Assembly (NCBI GenBank): GCA_040752435.1
Contig: JBFMGN010000001.1
Location: forward strand, 1-25,380
Direction of reading: 5' to 3'
DNA from: Spirochaetota bacterium
GTDB lineage: Bacteria > Spirochaetota > Spirochaetia > SPDA01 > JBFMGN01
Length of the DNA: 25,380 nt
In this document: piece by piece, positions 2,602 through 11,760 of the stretch
Position numbering within the stretch: position 1 is the stretch's first letter
Layout: each line of letters begins with the position of its first letter
Position numbers and translations under genes: made by a program
The notes under the pieces: model-generated
What the model saw: only the letters and a program-made list of their open reading frames with translations
Databases searched by the model: none
What the model was told of the DNA's origin: nothing

Positions 2602-4023
2602 ATGAACGGATTATTCGAAGCCGCCGTATTAAAGAGATGGGCTGTTTTATCCCTGTGTTTCTTTTTCCTGTTTCACTCTGCCCTGCCCGGTGCGGTGGGA
2701 GAAGATAAGCCGGCATCACTAACAATTGAAGAGGCCTATACGCTTCTGAAAACAAACTCCGAAACTTTGCACGTAAAAGCTTTGGAGTTACAGAAATCCC
2801 GGGAGATGCACAAGGAAGTCCGGTCAAAAGCCTTGCCACGGCTTACCCTTGAATCTTCCGCTTCCTACCTGATAAATCCACCGGAAGGCATGATAATGAA
2901 AAAAGGTGAGTTCGGCCGGATAACCATTCCCCAGGCCGGCAGTCTTTCGCTTCCGGAAAAAGATGTGGAAATTATGCCTGACGCCGAGCACACCTACTTC
3001 AAGCTTTCTGCAGTTTTAAGCCAGCCGGTTTTTACCTGGGGCAAGATCCGGAATGCCATAAATCTTGCAAGGTTGCAGGTGGAAATTTCCGGACTGGAAC
3101 TGGAAAAACAGGAAGCTGATTTGAAGCGTGAGGCCCACAGGGCTTATTACGGTGCCGTTTTAGCCAGGGAATCGGGGGTGGAGCTTCAAAAACTGAAAGA
3201 GATTCTTTTGGATATCCTTTCTGACCGGGAAAAAAATTTCAAAGCAGGCACCTTGAATCGGCAAAGCGTTCTCGAAGCCAGGGAGAAGGTAGCGGAACTG
3301 GAGACACAACTTATCGAAGCCGAGGAAAGCCAAAGAACATCTCTGGAAAGTCTGGGGATCCTGACGGGGGTCGACCCGGAAAATGTGGAGCTCACATCGA
3401 GTTTCAGGCAAGAGCTGCCTCTCATGGATGAGGAATTGTTGAAAGAACAAGTTATCAAATCCGCAAAGGAGGTGGAAATTTTTCGAAAAAGAGTTATTCA
3501 GGCTCAGAAAAAGCTCAAAATCGCCCAAGGTTCATCCATGCTGCTTCCGGACCTGTTTCTTTCCCTCGCTTTTGATGTGAAGGGGCAACGGATCCCGCTT
3601 GCGGGCGCAAATTGGACGGATACCTGGGATTGGGATCTGATAATAAGCGTCGGTACAAAGGTTGACCTTTTTGACAGTGGGGAATCCTTTTTCAAAATTA
3701 AGGAAGCTGAGAAGGAGCTGCAGATGGCGAGCTTTAGTCTTTCAGAGTATGAGAAGGTGTTGAAACTTCAGGTACGGCAGAACATCCAGGCAATGAAAAA
3801 GGCCTACTATGAAACTCTGGAAAAAAGTGCCAGGATCGAAAGAAACCGGGAACAGTTGAAAAATGCCGAAGTCTCCTTTGAAAATGAGCTGATTACCCGG
3901 GAGGAATACCTGGGTTCCCAGGCTGCCTCAATCAGCACAAACCTGGAATATCTTTTTTCCCTCTACACCTTTGAAGAAGCACTATCGGATTTGGAGTATC
4001 TCCTGGACAGGAGCTTCAAGTAG
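2602..4023 (+). CDS. tolC: TolC-family outer membrane efflux protein
   Basis: 473 aa with an N-terminal signal and two OEP-type repeats (ALPRLTLESS..LSQPVFTWGK; LLPDLFLSL..VDLFDSGE). It is the last gene of the RND operon. Confidence 0.88.
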   Translation: MNGLFEAAVLKRWAVLSLCFFFLFHSALPGAVGEDKPASLTIEEAYTLLKTNSETLHVKALELQKSREMHKEVRSKALPRLTLESSASYLINPPEGMIMKKGEFGRITIPQAGSLSLPEKDVEIMPDAEHTYFKLSAVLSQPVFTWGKIRNAINLARLQVEISGLELEKQEADLKREAHRAYYGAVLARESGVELQKLKEILLDILSDREKNFKAGTLNRQSVLEAREKVAELETQLIEAEESQRTSLESLGILTGVDPENVELTSSFRQELPLMDEELLKEQVIKSAKEVEIFRKRVIQAQKKLKIAQGSSMLLPDLFLSLAFDVKGQRIPLAGANWTDTWDWDLIISVGTKVDLFDSGESFFKIKEAEKELQMASFSLSEYEKVLKLQVRQNIQAMKKAYYETLEKSARIERNREQLKNAEVSFENELITREEYLGSQAASISTNLEYLFSLYTFEEALSDLEYLLDRSFK

Positions 4024-4083
4024 ATTAAAACCGGCTTTCCATCAGTTGCGGTGGTTTGAGCAGCAGGCTGCGAAACAGGCTGT

Positions 4084-4220
4084 TTATGCACCTGTTACTT
4101 TCCGTACGGTTTTTTCAAGGTCGTTATCCTTAAAGCGTTTGTATTTCCGCAAGGCTTCATTGATGCGAGTTTGGTAATTACCCCCTTCTGGGCCGTACTT
4201 TGGCGGAAGAAAAATAAAAT
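4084..4220 (-). pseudogene. C-terminal remnant of a BrnA-family antitoxin
   Basis: Manual translation of the minus strand gives KYGPEGGNYQTRINEALRKYKRFKDNDLEKTVRKVTGA*, with the BrnA-type YQTRINEALR motif. The upstream ILFFFRQ is one base out of frame, and no start or toxin gene is visible. Confidence 0.6.
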
Positions 4221-4690
4221 TCAGCTTACCTTGAAAATGGTGAGGATAAGCGATGCTTTATGTCCCACATGCAATGGATCGGGGAAAGCGGCCATTTTTT
4301 CGCTGAAGTGCGAAAGTTTTTCCATCCGTGGACCAGCATCAATGAACTTGTGAACCGAAGAAGGATCGATGCAATGTTTACCGCCGTTTCTGAAGAAACC
4401 TGCACTCATGGGCTGAAAAAGAATGCTTGTAATCGTAGTACTGGCATGTATGGGCTGTCCTAATCCCATGACTAATGTAAGCGTGAATTTTGATGCCGAT
4501 GGCTATGTGGTATTGTGGTTGAACTTTCCCTGTCATAAATCTTTCCTCATATTAGGTAATGATTGCAACTATAACATACTATTGGGAGTTTCGGATACGC
4601 CTCACCCGATACGAACAAACGGGACATTTGACAAGAGGTATCGGCGGTGGCCGCGGTTCTGGCTGAAGCTCGTGGCGCGGCCTTTAGTCT

Positions 4691-4858
4691 TTACATCATC
4701 GCACCTATGAAGTCCGATGGCATTGCGATGGGCTGCATGCCGATGATGTCGGCCCAGGGAATGGCCAGCAACTCATCCCGTGTTGTCTCGGTTGTCTGAT
4801 AATCGGCTTCTCCAACGATCTCGATGTCTTTGACCAGCAACAACACCAGCATCTGATC
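4691..4858 (-). pseudogene. Internal fragment of a HepT/DUF86 (HEPN) ribonuclease toxin
   Basis: Manual translation gives DQMLVLLLVKDIEIVGEADYQTTETTRDELLAIPWADIIGM, matching the DUF86 pattern (IEIxGEA...IPWxxIIGM). It diverges exactly where the catalytic R-x4-H motif should follow. Confidence 0.7.
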
Positions 4859-4908
4859 TTGACCGCGATGCGCTTATGCTCGCCCGGCTTGAAGGGCAGC
4901 GAAACCGT
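4855..4908 (-). pseudogene. C-terminal fragment of a site-specific DNA methyltransferase (Mod-like)
   Basis: TVSLPFKPGEHKRIAVKI resembles the C-terminal S-x-PF...(R/K)IAVK(I/V) motif of long N6-adenine methyltransferases. Only 18 codons. Confidence 0.55.
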
Positions 4909-4922
4909 GGATAGTGGGCCGG

Positions 4923-4995
4923 TCAGCGACGCAGCGATTTCACGAGCCCGGTCAGCAATTTCCCGACTTCCTCGCAATTGTTCAATACAGTCTCT
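4923..4995 (-). pseudogene. C-terminal fragment of a four-helix-bundle (23S rRNA IVS-type) protein
   Basis: ETVLNNCEEVGKLLTGLVKSLRR* resembles the family's terminal helix (EVGxMLxGLxxSL). Confidence 0.5.
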
Positions 4996-5035
4996 CTATC
5001 GGTCTTTTCTTTTTGGTTGTCTTTTTTCTTGCCAT
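4982..5035 (-). pseudogene. 5' stub of a DNA methyltransferase-like gene at the start of cassette 5
   Basis: AAGGA SD, then ATG at 5035 encoding MARKKTTKKKRPIE(RLY*), 47 nt after the attC crossover point. The basic N-terminus ending in PIE resembles Mod-like methyltransferase starts. Confidence 0.45.
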
Positions 5036-5075
5036 CAATGCCTGTCCTTATCTCGATCTGGTTGCGATTATGGGA

Positions 5076-5203
5076 GGCTAACGACAGAGTCGAGCTGCAT
5101 CGTCGTCGGAAGCAGAACGTTATGTTTTTGCAAATGAAGTCTCCCTTTTCGAGCATCAGCTAAGGCGTCAGCTCCATCCAGATGATATGTCCTCTTGTTC
5201 TAT
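5076..5203 (-). other. attC site (degenerate) of the 4-TM cassette
   Basis: Minus strand: ATAGAAC...TGGAGCTGACGCC (L'', 5176-5167)...TGCAGCTCGA (L') ctctgtc GTTAGCC (R', 5082-5076). The R''-L'' spacing is abnormally long. Confidence 0.75.
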
Positions 5204-5265
5204 TATCCTTTTGATCGACCAAGTATTGCCACTGAAAGTTCCAAGGTTGCTATGCAAATGCTTGT

Positions 5266-5808
5266 CTAAAACGTTATGACTATCTGGACTAGAAAGAAAT
5301 AGGTCAATATTGCGTAAGTTGGTATTTCTGTATGATACCGGGAATCGATCACATCTTTCTTACCACCAAAGATCCGATAAATTAGATAGACGGTAGCCAT
5401 GATTGGGAACAACAAAGTTAAAATCATGATAGCAAAGGGTCTCCTCTTGTTTTCCCTCTTGTTCTTTTCAGTTTCCATTGCGTTGTTGTAAAGATCAGGG
5501 AATAAATTGACTGCCGTATCTGTGTCGATTTGCCTTAATAGGTTCAATAAGGCATATGATTCATATACCGACTGCCATCTGTGCCTGAATTGAAATGACA
5601 CGAATGAAAGAGCAGACAAGTAGGTTACGGCAAGAATAAGAATGGTTAGTAGCTCTTCTTCAAAATAGTCAAATGATCTATTGTGGAGCCATCTGAAACT
5701 CACGATAGTGAACGTGAGGTACAATGATGTAGCGATCCAAGCCATTTTTTCCTTATTCTGATGATAGTTTTCATTCAACTCGATCTTTTTTAGAATTAGG
5801 TCAATCAT
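5266..5808 (-). CDS. Hypothetical membrane protein with about 4 TM segments, integron cassette
   Basis: 180-aa AT-rich ORF between two attC sites. Hydrophobic stretches at about residues 22-38, 53-72, 125-147 and 162-180. Confidence 0.75.
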   Translation of the reverse strand: MIDLILKKIELNENYHQNKEKMAWIATSLYLTFTIVSFRWLHNRSFDYFEEELLTILILAVTYLSALSFVSFQFRHRWQSVYESYALLNLLRQIDTDTAVNLFPDLYNNAMETEKNKRENKRRPFAIMILTLLFPIMATVYLIYRIFGGKKDVIDSRYHTEIPTYAILTYFFLVQIVITF

Positions 5809-5951
5809 AAAAACTTCTTATCTAGAATTCCTTTCTCGTACGAAAAAGCCTAATAGCTTTGGCTTCTAGATTCTCATTAGTAAGACGGCTACTCATTTAG
5901 CCAATCGTAGTTACCTTTCTAACAAAGCCAAGGTATACAGCATGTACTCAA

Positions 5952-6035
5952 TGCGAACGGCCTTGCACTTAGTCCGGCGCCCTTGCAGGAGCGCAGGGAC
6001 GAGAAGGCGTCAAGTCCAGCGGCATGTTAAGCTCC
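5952..6035 (-). other. attC site of the toxin-antitoxin cassette
   Basis: GGAGCTTAAC (R'', contains the mazF TAA stop) atgccgc TGGACTTGACGCC...GGCGCCGGACTAAGTGCA aggcc GTTCGCA (R'). This is an imperfect hairpin with an unpaired central spacer. Confidence 0.85.
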
Positions 6036-6365
6036 GATTATTTCATCCAGTCCTTCTATGACTTGTGCAATCTCTTCTGGAGCCGCACGTCCGATTTTCT
6101 TGCCGATCCGTTCAACCGCCAAGGTTCTGATCTGGCTAATTTTCACCCAAGATCTTTTTAGCATCTTGACTGTCCTAAGTTCCAGTGTTAAAGGAAAGCC
6201 CGCTCGCTGCGGTTGACTGGTAATTGCTACGGTTATTACGGTCCCAGAGCGTTCATTGAAGATGTCTTGGCTTAAAATAAGGACTGGTCGATTTCTTGTC
6301 TGTTCGCTTCCGCAAACAGGATTTAGATCAGCCCAACGCACCTCCCCTCTTAGTATTCTGACCAT
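6027..6365 (-). CDS. mazF: PemK/MazF-family endoribonuclease toxin
   Basis: RGEVRWADLNPVCGSEQTRNRPVLILSQDIFNERSGTVITVAITSQ...SWVKISQIRTL. The start is placed at the ATG at 6365 (MVRILRG), overlapping the antitoxin end. Confidence 0.9.
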   Translation of the reverse strand: MVRILRGEVRWADLNPVCGSEQTRNRPVLILSQDIFNERSGTVITVAITSQPQRAGFPLTLELRTVKMLKRSWVKISQIRTLAVERIGKKIGRAAPEEIAQVIEGLDEIIGA

Positions 6366-6592
6366 TCCACTTTGTCCTGCGAAAGCCATTCTTCAGCCAA
6401 TGAGCGTTCGAATTCTGGATCTAACTTCGATACTTCGCGAGCTAGTCGGGATCGCTCTAAACGGGCTAATTTCTCTCTAACAGCCTCCTCGATAGCTTGG
6501 CTTCGGTTCGGGTATGCACGCTGACGGACCAGCGTATCAATACGCCCGACAATACCATCATCAAGGGTAATCGCGATTTTAGATTTTGGTAC
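6350..6592 (-). CDS. Ribbon-helix-helix (CopG/MazE-type) antitoxin; the codon at the expected start position is GTA
   Basis: PKSKIAITLDDGIVGRIDTLVRQRAYPNRSQAIEEAVREKL. An AGGAG SD (6603-6599) sits 6 nt before GTA at 6592. The ORF-track ATG at 6622 lies between the -35 and -10 boxes. Confidence 0.8.
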   Translation of the reverse strand, partial: VPKSKIAITLDDGIVGRIDTLVRQRAYPNRSQAIEEAVREKLARLERSRLAREVSKLDPEFERSLAEEWLSQDKVEWSEY

Positions 6593-6604
6593 GGTTTTCT
6601 CCTG

Positions 6605-6639
6605 AGTATGATAATACGTCATACTATTAAATTAGACAA
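6605..6639 (-). promoter_or_regulatory. Sigma70-type promoter and palindromic operator of the TA cassette
   Basis: TTGTCT (6639-6634)-N17-TATTAT (6616-6611), overlapped by the palindrome AGTATGA-N7-TCATACT (6605-6625). Confidence 0.75.
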
Positions 6640-6657
6640 TAGGTAATTCTGTCACAT

Positions 6658-6720
6658 GGAGCTTAACGGCGCGGTTAAGCTGCTGAGTTCACAAGGCCGG
6701 CTGGATTGATTTATTCTCTG
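6658..6720 (-). other. attC site (short, degenerate) of the R-M cassette
   Basis: CAGAGAAT (R'' with AAC changed to AAT) aaatcaat CCAGCCGG...CAGCTTAAC (L') cgcgcc GTTAAGC (R', 6667-6661). Confidence 0.75.
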
Positions 6721-6730
6721 ATTTTTTTAT

Positions 6731-7343
6731 TTACGCTGCAATTCCAATAATTACTAATGGAACCGCAGGGACGCCCCGACCTTGCCGGACGATATTGTAA
6801 AGCTCTCCCTCGTAATAGGCGACGCCGGAACTCATTTGGGCTTGAAGTGATTTCATGGGCAGAATCTCAATACCGACATCTATATGGTCTCTGATATAAA
6901 ACGCAAGGTGTTTGACAAAGAGGTCATAGGCCACAAAAGAGTACTTGCCAAATTGTACTTCTACGGCTACGCGATTCTTTACAAAATCCGTTTGATTATA
7001 ACTGAAGATTGGAATTTCGCCTACTGCCTCTATTTCTTTTTTTCTGCTCTGTAGCTGGCATGGTAAGTGTTTTTCTTATAAGTTTTTCGTTCTTCGTAAC
7101 CCAATAGCTGACTCTGCTTTCTTGCCATTCATTGGTGCGAAGCAATTTTGAAAACGCTTTATTCATGTCGATTGGGCTGTATAGCAGTTTCCCTTTCATC
7201 GTTTTTTCTTTAGAGACCTTGGTTTTGCAAGTCTCTGCATCTACAAGAGCAATAACTTTCTTGATTTCCCCCCATAATTTGGGTTTGTGAACAATCAAAA
7301 ACTCTAATCCGTTCAAATGCGAGTATGTTTCCACAATGTTCAT
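6731..7343 (-). pseudogene. BglII/BstYI-family type II restriction endonuclease, frameshifted
   Basis: Removing one A from the 7-A run (T7037-7043 on the plus strand) joins the 115-aa and 67-aa ORFs into 203 aa: ...EQKKEIEAVGEIPIFSYNQTDFVKNRVAVEVQFGKYSFVAYDLF..., with the BglII-type D...E-x-Q catalytic motif. GAGGT SD upstream. Confidence 0.85.
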
Positions 7344-7360
7344 TTAACAGAATACCTCGC

Positions 7361-8287
7361 TCATTTTTCAAGTAATCTCATTTGGGCATCTTCTTTTTTA
7401 GTTGCCCAAGGAGCGATTCTTAAGCTGTTTCCCGCTTCTTCTGGGTCGTAAACAGGTGTATCCATTGGACGCGTCCTTAACGTTCCGGCAATTTCCTGCT
7501 CAATTCTCTGTTTTGCAAGCTCTATGTACTTCCTAACCGTCTCAGCACCGGCACCCCGTCGTTTATGACGAATGGCTGCGATTATTGATGTACCGGTACC
7601 TAAAAAAGGGTCAAACACCCAGTCGCACTCGCTTGTCATCGAGAGAACGAGCCTTTCAATAAGTTCAACAGGAAATTGACATGGGTGGTCTGTCTTTTCT
7701 ACATGATTGCTTTTGACGTTGGGAATGACCCATAAATCCCCGGGGTTTTTGCCCAGAGGATTGCATGAATATTTTCCGGCATTGGGTCCTTTGAAATACT
7801 TTTTACCGGGATACTTTTGTGGCACCCTCACCGGGTCCAGGTTAAACATGTATTTTTCGGTTTTTGTGAACCAGATAATGGTTTCGTATCGTCCCGAAAA
7901 CCGGCGGGTACAATGAAGACCGTGCTCAAAGTGCTAGATAATGCGATTTCTCATCCTAAGGCCCAGGCTTGTGAAAATAGGATAAAGCACTGTGTCGAGC
8001 GGAATAATTGCACCGTTGTCGACATAATTTCCGACCTGCCAGCAAATGCTCCCATACGGGGAAAGGCACCTTACGCACTCTCGGATAACCGCCGCCTGCT
8101 GATCGATGTAGAATTCCAGCTTAAGCCGCTTTTCATATTCTTTACCAATGTTATAAGGTGGTGATGTAACGATGAGTTGTAGTGACTCGTCCGGGATAGT
8201 TTTTAGCAATTTCAGACAATCACCGGGATAGAGGACAATGTCCTCTGACAAGGAGAAAATATCCGCTATTTTTCGTTTATCGAACAT
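7361..8287 (-). pseudogene. Beta-class N4-cytosine/N6 DNA methyltransferase with an in-frame TAG
   Basis: TSPPY (motif IV) precedes FDPFLGTGT (motif I). The frame reads RNRII*HFEHGLHCTRRFSGRYETIIWFTK; the TAG at 7936-7934 falls where Trp is expected, and read-through gives 308 aa. Confidence 0.88.
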
Positions 8288-8293
8288 AGGCTT

Positions 8294-8322
8294 ATGATAG
8301 CAATATGAGGGTTTGCAGTCAA
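8294..8322 (-). promoter_or_regulatory. Sigma70 promoter of the R-M cassette, predicting a leaderless transcript
   Basis: TTGACT (8322-8317)-N17-TGc-extended TATCAT (8299-8294). The ATG at 8287 begins 7 nt after the -10 box, and there is no SD. Confidence 0.7.
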
Positions 8323-8340
8323 TGAATTCATTTTTTATTC

Positions 8341-8457
8341 AGGGAACGATAGAGCTGAGCTGCCGCGCCGAATCATCGATAAGCTTATATTTAAGCAATA
8401 GTACTTATCAGTTACCAAGCGTAGCATAAGCGGTCAACCGCATGTTATCCACATTTG
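8341..8457 (-). other. attC site (degenerate) of the cyclase cassette
   Basis: CAAATGTGGATAAC (R'') atgcggttgaccgc...GGCAGCTCAG (L') ctctatc GTTCCCT (R', 8347-8341). The complementary L'' (GAGCTG) is missing. Confidence 0.75.
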
Positions 8458-8475
8458 TCTTTCTTTTAACAGTAT

Positions 8476-9384
8476 CTACAGATGCCTGAATGGCTTGTAT
8501 TTGAACAATCTGTCATTATCATGCACAAAAGGATAGTACAGAATGAAGTTCGTCCTCTTAATATATTCCTCCATGAAGTACATAAGGTTTATCTGGTTTA
8601 CTGGTGTTACATCCCTTAAAAGAAGATCATTTTCATAATGCTCGAATTTATCCTCCATATCGATACAGATGATTGGATAGTCAACGTACTCGAGAATTCC
8701 TTTAATAGATTTCCTACCTTCGTAATACAATTCTATCCCTTCATCTTCAATTGTGAGGTAATTATCGCGTAACAGGAGAATTGCGAATTCAACGGAGATG
8801 ACGAACCTGTTAAGTGTCGAATGCTTGGCAATCCTAAAGCCAATGTCGATTTGCCGGCCTATGAAGTCTCGTTGTTTCAACCCATCGGCTTTGGCATTAT
8901 TAAATTCTATCTCTATATTTCCATACAACTCATCATAATTTGGACCTTTGACGATATTTGCAAACCATGCAGCTCCTTTTATTTTAAAGGCACGATCATT
9001 TTTCTTCAGTTTCTCATCAGCCGCACTATTATGAACTATGATTGCCCTTCTAAAAAGAATTGTATAATAGAGTACAAGTTCATAATAGGCTAACTCTTTC
9101 TTATCCTGTAGTTTTTCATATGTTTCGCTGATATCAATGAAGAATAGGACTTCATCCCCAACAAGTTTCCAGATGTTCGGGCAAGGCAAAGGGCGAGCTT
9201 CATGTCGTGGTATTTTTACACTTTTGCAGCTCTCGTTCAATTTATTTGGAAATGCTTCAAGGAACAACTTAAAGTCTTTGCTCCAGTCATTGAGAAACCT
9301 GCTCTTATACGCGGACGAATCAACTATGTCAACGCTAAAAAAAATAAACGCTTTCACATCCTTGTCTTTTGGCTGTTCTATCAT
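8476..9384 (-). CDS. Divergent stand-alone class III nucleotidyl cyclase-like protein, first cassette of the array
   Basis: FFSVDIVDSS (D19), WKLVGDEVLF (K73, D77), RDFIGRQIDIGFRI (D173, G176, R184), FVISVE and GRKSIKGI occur in the order of the class III cyclase core motifs. GAGGTGA SD upstream. Confidence 0.72.
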   Translation of the reverse strand: MIEQPKDKDVKAFIFFSVDIVDSSAYKSRFLNDWSKDFKLFLEAFPNKLNESCKSVKIPRHEARPLPCPNIWKLVGDEVLFFIDISETYEKLQDKKELAYYELVLYYTILFRRAIIVHNSAADEKLKKNDRAFKIKGAAWFANIVKGPNYDELYGNIEIEFNNAKADGLKQRDFIGRQIDIGFRIAKHSTLNRFVISVEFAILLLRDNYLTIEDEGIELYYEGRKSIKGILEYVDYPIICIDMEDKFEHYENDLLLRDVTPVNQINLMYFMEEYIKRTNFILYYPFVHDNDRLFKYKPFRHL

Positions 9385-9492
9385 TTCTCACCTCTCACTC
9401 AATGGCTGGCCCATATAGAATAAAATGATAACCTGAACGTTGCACTGGTTCTCAATCGGTAAAGGAAAGACATAATATGAAATACGAATCTT

Positions 9493-9535
9493 CAAATGTG
9501 GCTAACATATTATCTCGTTTGTCCTCCGCTGTTCC
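9493..9535 (-). other. Probable attI recombination site
   Basis: GTTAGCCACATTTG (9506-9493) is a 13/14 inverted match to the R'' of the cyclase cassette, which fixes the crossover. The upstream sequence (ggaggacaaacgagataatat) has no attC-type L'/L'' hairpin. Confidence 0.6.
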
Positions 9536-9651
9536 AGCCCTTAAGTACTTCGCAAGCGACTTGCGAACATCATGCCTTTCGTTGTTCGCAACACTTAAAG
9601 CATGCGAACAGTTCACACAGTAATTCTAGAGGGATTACCCCGAAACTGCAA

Positions 9652-9735
9652 GAGGAGGTTGGCATGCGTAAAGACAGACAGACCTTCGAGGTCTATCTTC
9701 TGGAAACGGCTCGGGTCGTACCGAAGTTCAAATTG
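9652..9735 (+). pseudogene. Possible 5' stub of the integron integrase
   Basis: Strong SD GAGGAGG, then ATG at 9664 (MRKDRQTFEVYLLETARVVPKF), divergent from the cassettes and just beyond attI, where intI normally sits. No tyrosine recombinase motif survives, so the evidence is positional only. Confidence 0.3.
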
Positions 9736-9924
9736 CAGATGTCACAGACCTTCCGATGCAACACAAGGTTCCCACGGAACGAACCAAAACTCTCCGGTAT
9801 CACGTGTTCTCTGTTTGCAGCAGCATGCAGCACCGGGCGGAGTACCTGCTTATTGGCATTGAAACGAACCTTGTAAAGATTATCAAGTTCAAATATTGTT
9901 ACATCTGTTGGAAAAGGAAACCGG

Positions 9925-11760
9925 ATGAATACAGTTAACATAACCTTTAAGCCGCAAAACATTACGGTGTGGATACCGGAAGGTAGTTCGATTATCGAAG
10001 CCGCGCAGGCTGCCGGGATAAAGATTACCGGCCCCTGCGGCGGAAAGGGAACATGCGGGAAATGCAAGGTAATAGTCCGGGATGGGATTTCGCCTCTTTC
10101 AAACGCAGAAAGACAGTTACTCGAGAAAATCGAAATCAACGCCGGCTGCCGGCTGGCCTGTCAGACTAAAGTATTTGAAGCTACTGTCGTCGAGATTCCA
10201 GCAGACGCCAACCTTCTAAAACAAAGGATCCTGGATCACGGAATTTCCAGGCCATTCCAACTCAATCCAATTGTAAAAAAACAAGCGTTGGAAATCAGAG
10301 CGCCCAGTATGGCAGACCAGAGAGATGATCTTTCAAGAGTCCTGGATGTGCTGGGTGAAAGGAACGGTTTAAATGTCAATCTGACATGCTTAAGAAAATT
10401 GCCAAAAGCTATCCGGAATAAAACTTGTTCATTGACTATTATACGAACGGATAGGATGTGGATTGATATAAAGGGTTTAAGCGATTCGGAAAAAATATAC
10501 GGCCTGGCTGTGGATATCGGAACAACCACGGTCGTAGGTTATCTCTGCGATCTTGAAACGGGCAAGCAGGCGGGGGTTGCTTCTATAACGAATCCGCAGG
10601 TGGAGTTTGGGGATGATGTGATAGCCCGTATCACTTACACTACCGTAAAATACGATGGCCTTCAAAAATTACATGCGAAGATAATCGGCGGTCTTAATGA
10701 AATAATTGAACAATTGAAAGTGAGTGTGTCGATTGATCGCATGGATATTTATACGGCGGTTATGGCAGGCAACACGACCATGCAGCACCTGTTCCTCGGC
10801 CTGGATCCACGGAATATCGCTCCGGCGCCGTTCATCCCCGTAGCTTCCAGACTGCTTACATTAAGGGCGGCCGACCTCAAGCTGCATATAAATCCCGAGG
10901 CTCCGGTTGTAACTATGCCGAATGTTTCTGGATATGTAGGGGGGGATATTGTTTCAGGTATTCTGGCTGTAAATCTGTTCAGAAGCAAAGAAATTAAACT
11001 TTTTATAGATGTGGGCACCAACGGCGAAGTTGTGTTAGGATCGGAAGGAAATCTATTTGCATGTTCCGCGGCGGCCGGCCCGGCCTTTGAAGGGGCTATG
11101 ATTTCCCAGGGCATGCGGGCTGTCCCCGGCGCCATCGAGAGTGTTGTTTTCGATAATGACAATGTCTATTATAAAACGATAGACAATGTTAAGCCCCGGG
11201 GGATATGTGGGTCAGGATTACTGGATCTAGTGGCGCAAATGTTTCTCTTCGGTATTATTGAGAAAAGCGGGAGAATCTGTGAATCCGGCAGTGCACGAAT
11301 AAAAGGGGGAGAAGGGCTTAGAAAAAGGATTGTGGATGCCGACGGCATGCGGAAATTCCTGGTCTACAACGGAGATGCGGCTGAAGACGATAGACCGATT
11401 TATATAACGCAGAAAGATGTCCGGGAAATGCAGCTTGCAAAAGGGGCCATCCGGGCGGGGATTAATATATTGATGGAGACACTCAAAATTACTCCGGATG
11501 ATATTAGTGAAGTGCTTCTTGCGGGGGGGTTCGGCAATTATATTAAGAAAGAGAGCGCGCTGGCGGTAGGAATGATTCCGGCTATGCCGGAGGAAAAAAT
11601 TAAATCGGTAGGGAACTCCGCCGGTGAGGGGGCGAAAATAGCCCTTCTTTCAAAGGAAGAACTTGCCCTGACCGATAAAATTGCAAGAGAAGTAACGTAT
11701 ATTGAACTCTCGAATCAGACGACTTTTCAGAACGAGTTTATAAAATGCATGTCGTTTTAA
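9925..11760 (+). CDS. RACo/RamA-type ATP-dependent reductive activator of corrinoid proteins (2Fe-2S ferredoxin + ASKHA/DUF4445)
   Basis: N-terminal PCGGKGTCGKC...RLACQ. ASKHA motifs AVDIGTTTV, FIDVGTNGE, AGPAFEG, GICGSG, LAGGFG and GNSAGEGA. Confidence 0.92.
   Translation: MNTVNITFKPQNITVWIPEGSSIIEAAQAAGIKITGPCGGKGTCGKCKVIVRDGISPLSNAERQLLEKIEINAGCRLACQTKVFEATVVEIPADANLLKQRILDHGISRPFQLNPIVKKQALEIRAPSMADQRDDLSRVLDVLGERNGLNVNLTCLRKLPKAIRNKTCSLTIIRTDRMWIDIKGLSDSEKIYGLAVDIGTTTVVGYLCDLETGKQAGVASITNPQVEFGDDVIARITYTTVKYDGLQKLHAKIIGGLNEIIEQLKVSVSIDRMDIYTAVMAGNTTMQHLFLGLDPRNIAPAPFIPVASRLLTLRAADLKLHINPEAPVVTMPNVSGYVGGDIVSGILAVNLFRSKEIKLFIDVGTNGEVVLGSEGNLFACSAAAGPAFEGAMISQGMRAVPGAIESVVFDNDNVYYKTIDNVKPRGICGSGLLDLVAQMFLFGIIEKSGRICESGSARIKGGEGLRKRIVDADGMRKFLVYNGDAAEDDRPIYITQKDVREMQLAKGAIRAGINILMETLKITPDDISEVLLAGGFGNYIKKESALAVGMIPAMPEEKIKSVGNSAGEGAKIALLSKEELALTDKIAREVTYIELSNQTTFQNEFIKCMSF

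Follow-up and report, generated by a model that had tools for sequence, protein, structure and literature searches.

What is the row of small, co-oriented genes that lies between an efflux operon and a RACo gene in a Spirochaetota bacterium, and how could it have come to be there? The genes stand in a stretch of 25,380 nucleotides (assembly GCA_040752435.1, contig JBFMGN010000001.1), here referred to as the window; it makes up contig C1 in a fragmented bin of 1015 contigs (83% completeness, 5% contamination). The resistance-nodulation-division (RND) efflux operon ends at 4023 and the RACo gene begins at 9925; all genes between 5266 and 9384 are on the minus strand, and the GC content is 0.37-0.46 within the array stretch as compared to 0.45-0.57 outside it. 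An earlier reading made from the letters alone, the original prediction, had proposed an integron array here, with an attI-like site, four attC-like hairpins and cassettes serving as a bank of defense genes. We have found that positions 5076-9506 (minus strand, about 4.4 kb) are very probably a chromosomal row of four integron gene cassettes with decayed attC sites and no integrase gene nearby. Each of the four starts at a core site of the form G/TT (the slash marks the crossover point), ends in a homolog of an attC site and is found elsewhere as an independent cassette. The element is real, but its kind is already known and fairly common: integrase-less cassette arrays, toxin-antitoxin (TA) and restriction-modification (R-M) cassettes, and integrons as stores of defense genes have all been described. 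What is modestly new is that every attC of the array falls below detection, that its junction is common to copies of a repeat, and that two of its cassettes belong to uncharacterized families.

Elsewhere the modules of the window were found singly, in arrays where true attC sites enclose them and their neighbors differ, which bears out the proposal of a row of cassettes of the type moved by the integron integrase IntI, with the limits assigned to them. The 5' limit falls on a G/TTRRRY core site, namely GTTAGCC (9506), GTTCCCT (8347) and GTTAAGC (6667) for cassettes 1, 2 and 3. When the R'' box of each cassette was compared with its own 5' core, complementarity was seen at 6 of 7 positions in cassette 1 (with 7 further bases) and at all 7 in cassette 3 (10/10); in cassette 2 it is now 5 of 7 and was 6 of 7 before a change of AAC to AAT, and in cassette 4 it is 4 of 7. 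The inverted end matches from which the limits had been drawn were found at the claimed positions. Positions 8442-8457 and 9493-9508 are complementary at 15 of 16 positions, as compared to an average of 0.07 such pairs in 30 shuffles of the 6-kb region. The match of ggagcttaac (6658-6667) to gttaagctcc (6026-6035) is complete (10/10), and it is not significant alone, since 18 exact inverted 10-mers were observed versus 14 in shuffles. The weak match of 6/8 (8340-8347 and 6713-6720) proved to be correct, as the homology of the R-M module starts at G/TTCYCTGAA (8347) and the R'' box AGAGAAC aligns with 6713-6719.

Cassette 1 (8347-9505, minus strand), delimited by its homology to the metagenomic locus L041 (loci are denoted by L, contigs of this genome by C), consists of an open reading frame (ORF) for a cyclase-like protein of 302 amino acids (8476-9384) followed by a decayed attC. 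Twenty homologs of this ORF were found, the closest on L041 with 88% protein identity, and the cassette aligns with L041 (118-1183) at 89.8% nucleotide identity over positions 9506 to 8442 of the window, that is, from the core G/TTA (9506) to two bases past the R'' box GGATAAC (8442). In L041 the gene lies between attC sites at 53-124 (36.5 bits) and 1175-1288, and in L044 and L047 the homolog is likewise placed between attC sites. The first attC relic of the window (8341-8450, minus strand) has the R'' box GGATAAC at 8450-8444 and, where it had been predicted, the R' box GTTCCCT at 8347-8341. Compared to the site in L041 it has lost about 14 nucleotides of the L'' arm and gained an insertion in the loop; it retains 16 of 34 reference pairs, folds with a z score of -0.56 and is matched by no covariance model.

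The 302-amino-acid protein gave no match in Pfam, NCBIfam or PADLOC. Its structure model (pLDDT 89.5, pTM 0.90) has as best PDB matches the class III nucleotidyl cyclases Cya2, CyaB and CyaC (E about 2e-8, target TM score about 0.7), so that a class III nucleotidyl-cyclase fold is confidently predicted, to which the protein adds an extra part at its C terminus. Residues D19, G76-D77-E78 and R184 are invariant across the family and fall at what we take to be the metal-binding aspartate and transition-state arginine positions expected of class III cyclases. The family comprises 21 proteins, found in metagenomes only and carrying no family assignment at the sequence level. The ratio of nonsynonymous to synonymous substitution rates (dN/dS) of the ORF is 0.245. 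An insertion sequence or miniature inverted-repeat transposable element bounded by the 15/16 repeat around the ORF was considered and rejected, as the protein has a cyclase and not a transposase fold, no target duplication is present, the arms of the repeat are R' and R'' boxes, and the homologous cassettes carry a full attC.

Cassette 2 (6667-8346, minus strand) carries a BglII-like type II R-M pair, for which the Pfam families N6_N4_Mtase and Endonuc-BglII were each matched in two pieces. The gene for the N6_N4 DNA methyltransferase (7361-8287, minus strand) has a TGG codon changed to TAG at 7934-7936, and that for the restriction enzyme of the BglII family (6731-7343, minus strand) has one additional A in a run of A near 7043. 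With one in-frame TAG in the first and one +1 frameshift in the second, both domains are present and neither gene of the type II system is intact; as read from the sequence, the two are a pseudogene pair. The cassette is 84.4% identical in nucleotides to L050 (267-1920), in which the methyltransferase (315 amino acids) and the restriction enzyme (203 amino acids) are intact and are followed by an attC at 1899-1956. Across L050, L052 and L054 the module shows 80-84% identity, from 8350/8348 down to 6698, 22 nucleotides inside the attC; the 5' limit G/TTCYCTGAA (8347) is common to these homologs, with unrelated sequence upstream of it.

The locus L050 (GCA_016209225.1, JACQWO010000089.1, annotated as Desulfobacterales) resembles the window in this R-M cassette (84% nucleotide identity), in a TA cassette of the PemK/MazF family further along and in having all genes on one strand. 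It differs in that its R-M pair is intact, its five attC sites, all in a single orientation, score 19-32 bits, and other cassettes (flavodoxin, PNPOx, BrnTA, ParE) stand as neighbors; the attC sites separate cassettes for the R-M pair, flavodoxin, PNPOx, BrnTA, a PemK-type TA and a ParE-type TA. The second attC relic of the window (6661-6719, minus strand) has the R'' box AGAGAAT (6719-6713; formerly AGAGAAC) and the R' box GTTAAGC (6667-6661). Its R'' box, spacer and L'' arm are conserved with L050 and L052 apart from the change of AAC to AAT, its L' arm has diverged, and its single strand folds solely as a palindrome at 6661-6680. It was considered whether this palindrome is an attC that has lost its interior; the alignment with L050 and L052 showed it to be the diverged L' arm and the R' box of a full-length site of 59 nucleotides.

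The loss of the R-M pair, by one nonsense mutation and one frameshift, was recent, because the dN/dS of the methyltransferase against L050 (0.051) resembles that of intact pairs (0.04). The methyltransferase family is very widespread: all 8000 of 8000 scored candidates passed E 1e-20, and the best 120, which are 81-90% identical, come from bins of Desulfobacterales, other Deltaproteobacteria, Nitrospirae and Syntrophaceae. This suggests that the R-M (BglII) cassette is highly mobile.

Cassette 3 (5923-6666, minus strand) begins at GTTAAGC (6667), a perfect core consensus, and holds mazE, of the ribbon-helix-helix (RHH) type (6350-6622; RHH_1, 29 bits), and mazF, of the PemK type (6027-6389; PF02452, 98 bits), both assigned by Pfam and overlapping at 6350-6389. 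Its closest homolog, L056, is 86.5% identical over positions 6642 to 5977, and a paralog on contig C803 (69% nucleotide identity) stands directly after a true attC of 126 nucleotides. As predicted, the mazF stop codon (6027-6029) lies inside the R'' box GCTTAAC. Among 80 metagenomic MazF loci the attC begins at the last codon in at least 13, and the position of the stop codon is hence taken to be a trait of the mazEF cassette family. The third relic (5917-6032, minus strand) has R'' GCTTAAC at 6032-6026 and R' GTTAGAA at 5923-5917, with GTTCGCA at 5957-5951 as an alternative; of the four 3' limits this one is the least certain. The two R boxes agree with the consensus, while folding gives a branched structure (-18 kcal/mol, z -1.4) and no covariance model matches the relic. 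The dN/dS values of mazE and mazF are 0.20-0.23.

This genome thus has the mazEF TA family in two states, live in the cassette on C803 and fixed in that of the window. Between C803 (1-507) and the mazEF of the window a block of 16 nucleotides in the promoter region is identical, and the GTG start codon of the mazE paralog on C803 corresponds to GTA in the window, where the ORF starts at an upstream ATG. The palindrome at 6661-6680 was also considered as a MazE operator, and this was rejected as the closest mazEF homologs, L056 and C803, have no such palindrome upstream.

Cassette 4 (5082-5922, minus strand) contains a single ORF (5266-5808) for a protein of 180 amino acids with three to four hydrophobic segments by hydropathy, for which no PADLOC, Pfam or NCBIfam match was obtained. 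Only six homologs of this four-transmembrane protein were found, and in one of them, L136, it forms a single-gene cassette between attC sites at 1054-1170 and 1965-2080. The fourth relic (5076-5190, minus strand) aligns over its full length with the L136 site and has R'' ACATATC (5190-5184; formerly ACATAAC, the conserved triplet being mutated) and R' GTTAGCC (5082-5076); in its L box 7 of 9 pairs remain, as does the bulged C, and its fold has a z score of +0.5. The core GTTAGCC is found on the minus strand both at 5076-5082, where it closes this relic, and at 9500-9506, where it opens cassette 1. The closest homolog of cassette 1 has GTTATCC at its core. The identity of the two cores in the window could be due to chance or be a trace of the insertion of the row.

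The sites were looked for with three attC covariance models. A structural scan of the whole genome had found textbook attC sites on small contigs, from which 4 and 13 sites served to build the models R1 and R2; R3 was built from 30 sites, all from other metagenomic arrays, and is an independent detector. R3 detects 16 attC sites elsewhere in the genome at 22-52 bits, none of them in its training set. With filters off, none of the three models gave anything above 13.1 bits in the window, or anything at the four proposed sites, and no Rfam family was matched in the window. The best match of all three models (12-13.1 bits, E 0.2-0.4) is the palindrome at 6661-6680, a 20-nucleotide element in which only two R boxes are aligned and the interior of the model is skipped. 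Folded as single-stranded DNA, the candidate sites gave z scores of -0.06, -0.23, -0.79, +0.44 and +1.39, and with the exact limits -1.4 to +0.5, as compared to -2.3 to -6.6 for most of the intact homologous attC sites.

The four attC-like hairpins of the original prediction, which fold like shuffled sequence and match neither Rfam nor a covariance model, could therefore not be upheld as hairpins. Judging from the alignments, they are decayed copies of real attC sites, two without the AAC triplet, one with insertions and deletions and one branched. A 3' attC hairpin detectable by covariance model is present in the homologs of the cassettes and was found for none of them in the window. The original prediction had tied its own failure to two findings taken together, that the attC model would score none of the four sites and that relatives would carry the genes as a fixed block; the first was observed and the second was not. 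The nearest species-level relatives share only the order with this genome, and their RACo proteins are about 42% identical.

Which integrase could have placed the cassettes? Contig C848 carries a full-length intI (704-1699; TIGR02249, 462.6 bits against a cut-off of 265), and partial copies, two in number, lie on further contigs, in line with the suggestion that an integrase encoded elsewhere could act in trans. In the window (25 kb) no intI relic was found: tblastn with the IntI of this genome gave nothing below E 1, and no IntI-like frame is present. The TIGR02249 matches are confined to other contigs, as is characteristic of attC clusters that have no integron integrase (CALIN), and where a complete integron would have intI beside attI, the head of the array has a repeat and then the RACo gene. 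At least 16 attC sites detected by the model are scattered over small contigs including C390, C401, C150, C761, C361, C838, C851, C814, C345 and C428, and the real integron or integrons of this genome have probably been broken up by assembly.

The array is headed by a genome-specific repeat of 130 nucleotides (9503-9634, not assigned to a strand), which cassette 1 abuts at G(9506)/TT. Three copies are present in the genome, those at C25 (1200-1289) and C84 (958-1042) being about 92% identical, and the homology of the window with C84 starts exactly at TAAC (9503). No match to the repeat was obtained in 12 genomes from the order or, with an exact 23-nucleotide pattern, in species representatives; the repeat has no similarity to the region beside the C848 intI, and the models detected no attC beside its copies on C84 and C25. 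The attI-like site that had been predicted at the head of the array could accordingly not be confirmed, as it is this repeat, present in three copies and with no intI or intI relic adjacent. The repeat is not an attC, and it is a possible insertion site, either attI-like or a hotspot of the genomic attG type.

Homology between C84 and the window stops at the nucleotide where cassette 1 abuts the repeat (...ATAATATG/TTATGT). In C84 the junction is followed by a vapBC-like module, which starts with GTTATGT and whose stop codon lies within the exact complement of that start, ACATAAC, and then by an RHH-type pair (L010 / L143, 1-1060). Two different cassette-like rows, that of the window and that of vapBC and another TA on C84, thus begin at one nucleotide of the repeat, ...ATAATATG/TTA..., a pattern that fits insertion by IntI in trans at one preferred site. 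That the repeat is an orphan site, attI-like or a strong attG hotspot, used by IntI in trans at two or more places on the chromosome is a tentative idea that we consider rather doubtful. Should it be true, it would mean that satellite arrays can be fixed by attC decay and become invisible to attC-based finders.

We infer the following history. An integron integrase, most likely that of C848 acting in trans, would have placed the cassettes by successive insertions at the G/TT that closes the repeat (9503-9634); alternatively, the row may have been split off from a complete integron. The attC sites then lost what the integrase requires, with the AAC mutated in two, the L'' arm deleted in one and no R/L hairpin remaining, and the cassettes, no longer excisable, would have become fixed in place. 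Where a genome goes on producing IntI, such fixation is to be expected, since cassettes outside the platform with working attC sites would be excised. The mazEF genes and the two uncharacterized ORFs are still open and under purifying selection.

Several points weigh against this reading. The covariance models are home-made and are not IntegronFinder's own, and intact long attC sites (114-117 nucleotides) score only 15-21 bits with R2, so that for relics 1, 3 and 4 the margin to "undetected" is not large. The closest mazEF homolog, L056, is also without a detectable attC, and relic 3 may be an odd attC and not a decayed one. In relic 4 the R' box is intact and the L box largely preserved, with 24 of 30 reference pairs by alignment, and there might be residual activity in relic 4 and perhaps in relic 3. 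The route of arrival, by attG- or attI-like insertion or from a split integron, is one that we infer, and the continuity of the contig rests on the assembly, with the right border at a repeat, a place prone to false joins.

One alternative is that the row is an integrase-less array that still works, with unusual but functional attC sites recombined in trans and cassettes that are still mobile. An intact intI is available in the genome, relics 3 and 4 keep a consensus R' box, relic 4 also keeps most of the L box with its bulged base, and IntI has been reported to read structure more than sequence (10.1101/2022.09.11.507474). Against this, none of the sites folds into the R/L hairpin, and the three models that detect nothing in the window include R3, which locates 16 sites in other parts of the genome. 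Moreover, two sites are without the conserved AAC of R'' and one has lost its L'' arm, and we regard a working array as improbable.

Only a little less likely than that is an artefact of assembly, in which the 130-nucleotide repeat served to join an array from another place or organism to the RACo side. The bin of 1015 contigs with 5% contamination, the occurrence of the repeat on three contigs and exactly at the right border, and the shifts in GC at both borders would fit such a join. The copies of the repeat, however, are just about 92% identical, the array is enclosed by ordinary genes within a single contig of 25 kb, and C84 independently shows the same type of junction. Even if the join were false, only the location would change and not the reading of the row as cassettes. 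Least likely is an ordinary defense or TA island that arrived by other routes of horizontal transfer and whose core-like end matches are due to chance. In its favor, neither the 10/10 nor the 6/8 match is significant alone, no attC signal is seen and the GC is below that of the flanks as in any island. The comparisons of homologs already contradict it, however: the homology of two modules to independent cassettes breaks at G/TT and R'', each of the four modules has true attC sites around it in other loci, and the relics align lengthwise to true attC sites.

The reading as a row of cassettes with decayed attC sites can be placed among systems already described. CALIN have been proposed to arise by the splitting of integrons or by integration at secondary sites, and half of them are in genomes that encode IntI elsewhere (PMC4889954). 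Like these, the row has co-oriented cassettes, no intI or intI pseudogene near and an IntI encoded elsewhere in the genome (PMC4889954). Unlike them, as CALIN are defined by attC sites that a model detects, at least two within 4 kb, it has none detected with R1-R3, which would be a later stage of decay, and that definition would probably overlook it.

It was also shown that recombination of attC with attG inserts cassettes into genomes, and loss of the attC was predicted to fix these in place (10.1101/2022.09.11.507474). The window resembles the cassettes inserted at attG, or single attC sites lacking integron integrases (SALIN), of Loot et al. in its location outside an integron platform and in a first junction at G/TT. 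It differs in having four cassettes in a row and not one, in a junction that two repeat copies share to the nucleotide, which the near-random GWT target would not predict, and in the loss of attC by point mutations and small insertions and deletions in place of a clean deletion of the hairpin. The row supports the published prediction that cassettes inserted in the genome are fixed upon loss of the attC. It offers a worked example of cassettes outside the platform in which the genes outlive their recombination sites and attC covariance models are blind to the result, the array having been recovered solely by comparing its modules with mobile relatives. This suggests that attC-based finders undercount such arrays.

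Finally, does the row serve in defense? Integrons are enriched in TA cassettes and in compact type II R-M cassettes (10.1101/2024.07.02.601686), and the TA and type II R-M content of the window is typical of sedentary chromosomal integrons as stores of defense genes. Unlike those, the window has no integrase and no working attC, its cassettes number four, its R-M pair is dead, and for two uncharacterized cassettes a defense role is only a guess. The proposed bank of defense cassettes is better described as a fossil, with attC sites that are decayed and probably inactive. The argument by association was likewise found to be weak, because arrays with the same cassettes also carry metabolic genes, among them those for flavodoxin, PNPOx, a HAD hydrolase, an acyltransferase and a ligase; that the cyclase-like and four-transmembrane proteins have a role in defense would be guesswork. 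The two families do travel as cassettes and are reasonable candidates for a functional screen, which is not proof of defense.

In the pyrimidine cyclase system for antiphage resistance (Pycsar) and the cyclic-oligonucleotide-based antiphage signaling system (CBASS) a cyclase is encoded next to a nucleotide-sensing effector. In the window the cyclase fold is present and no PADLOC match was found; the cyclase-like gene is a single-gene cassette and the four-transmembrane gene is 2.7 kb off, in another cassette. The 302- and 180-amino-acid families showed no linkage in the other homologous loci. In L136 (118-1909) a protein of 313 amino acids with a weak guanylate-cyclase match (PF00211) is encoded in the cassette beside the four-transmembrane homolog, a single case that may be coincidence. 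A functional pairing of cyclase-like and four-transmembrane genes was rejected, as this neighbor is unrelated to the 302-amino-acid family (BLASTP E 2.7; hhalign probability 0.8%) and an attC lies between the two genes, and the neighbor in L139 is likewise unrelated.

Between the array and the efflux operon lies a gene-poor stretch with short broken frames (4024-5075, minus strand), possibly composed of older, unrecognizable cassettes. A sub-threshold match to the C-terminus of a BrnA antitoxin (21 bits against a cut-off of 26.1) was obtained at 4087-4257 on the minus strand; apart from it, neither Pfam nor the ORFs of the arrays compared gave a match in this stretch, which, including the BrnA fragment, may be the debris of older cassettes. 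On the other side of the array, between the repeat and the RACo gene (9652-9862, plus strand), a frame of about 66 amino acids, for which neither a family match nor similarity to recombinases was found, has a strong Shine-Dalgarno sequence, GAGGAGG, and an ATG at 9665.

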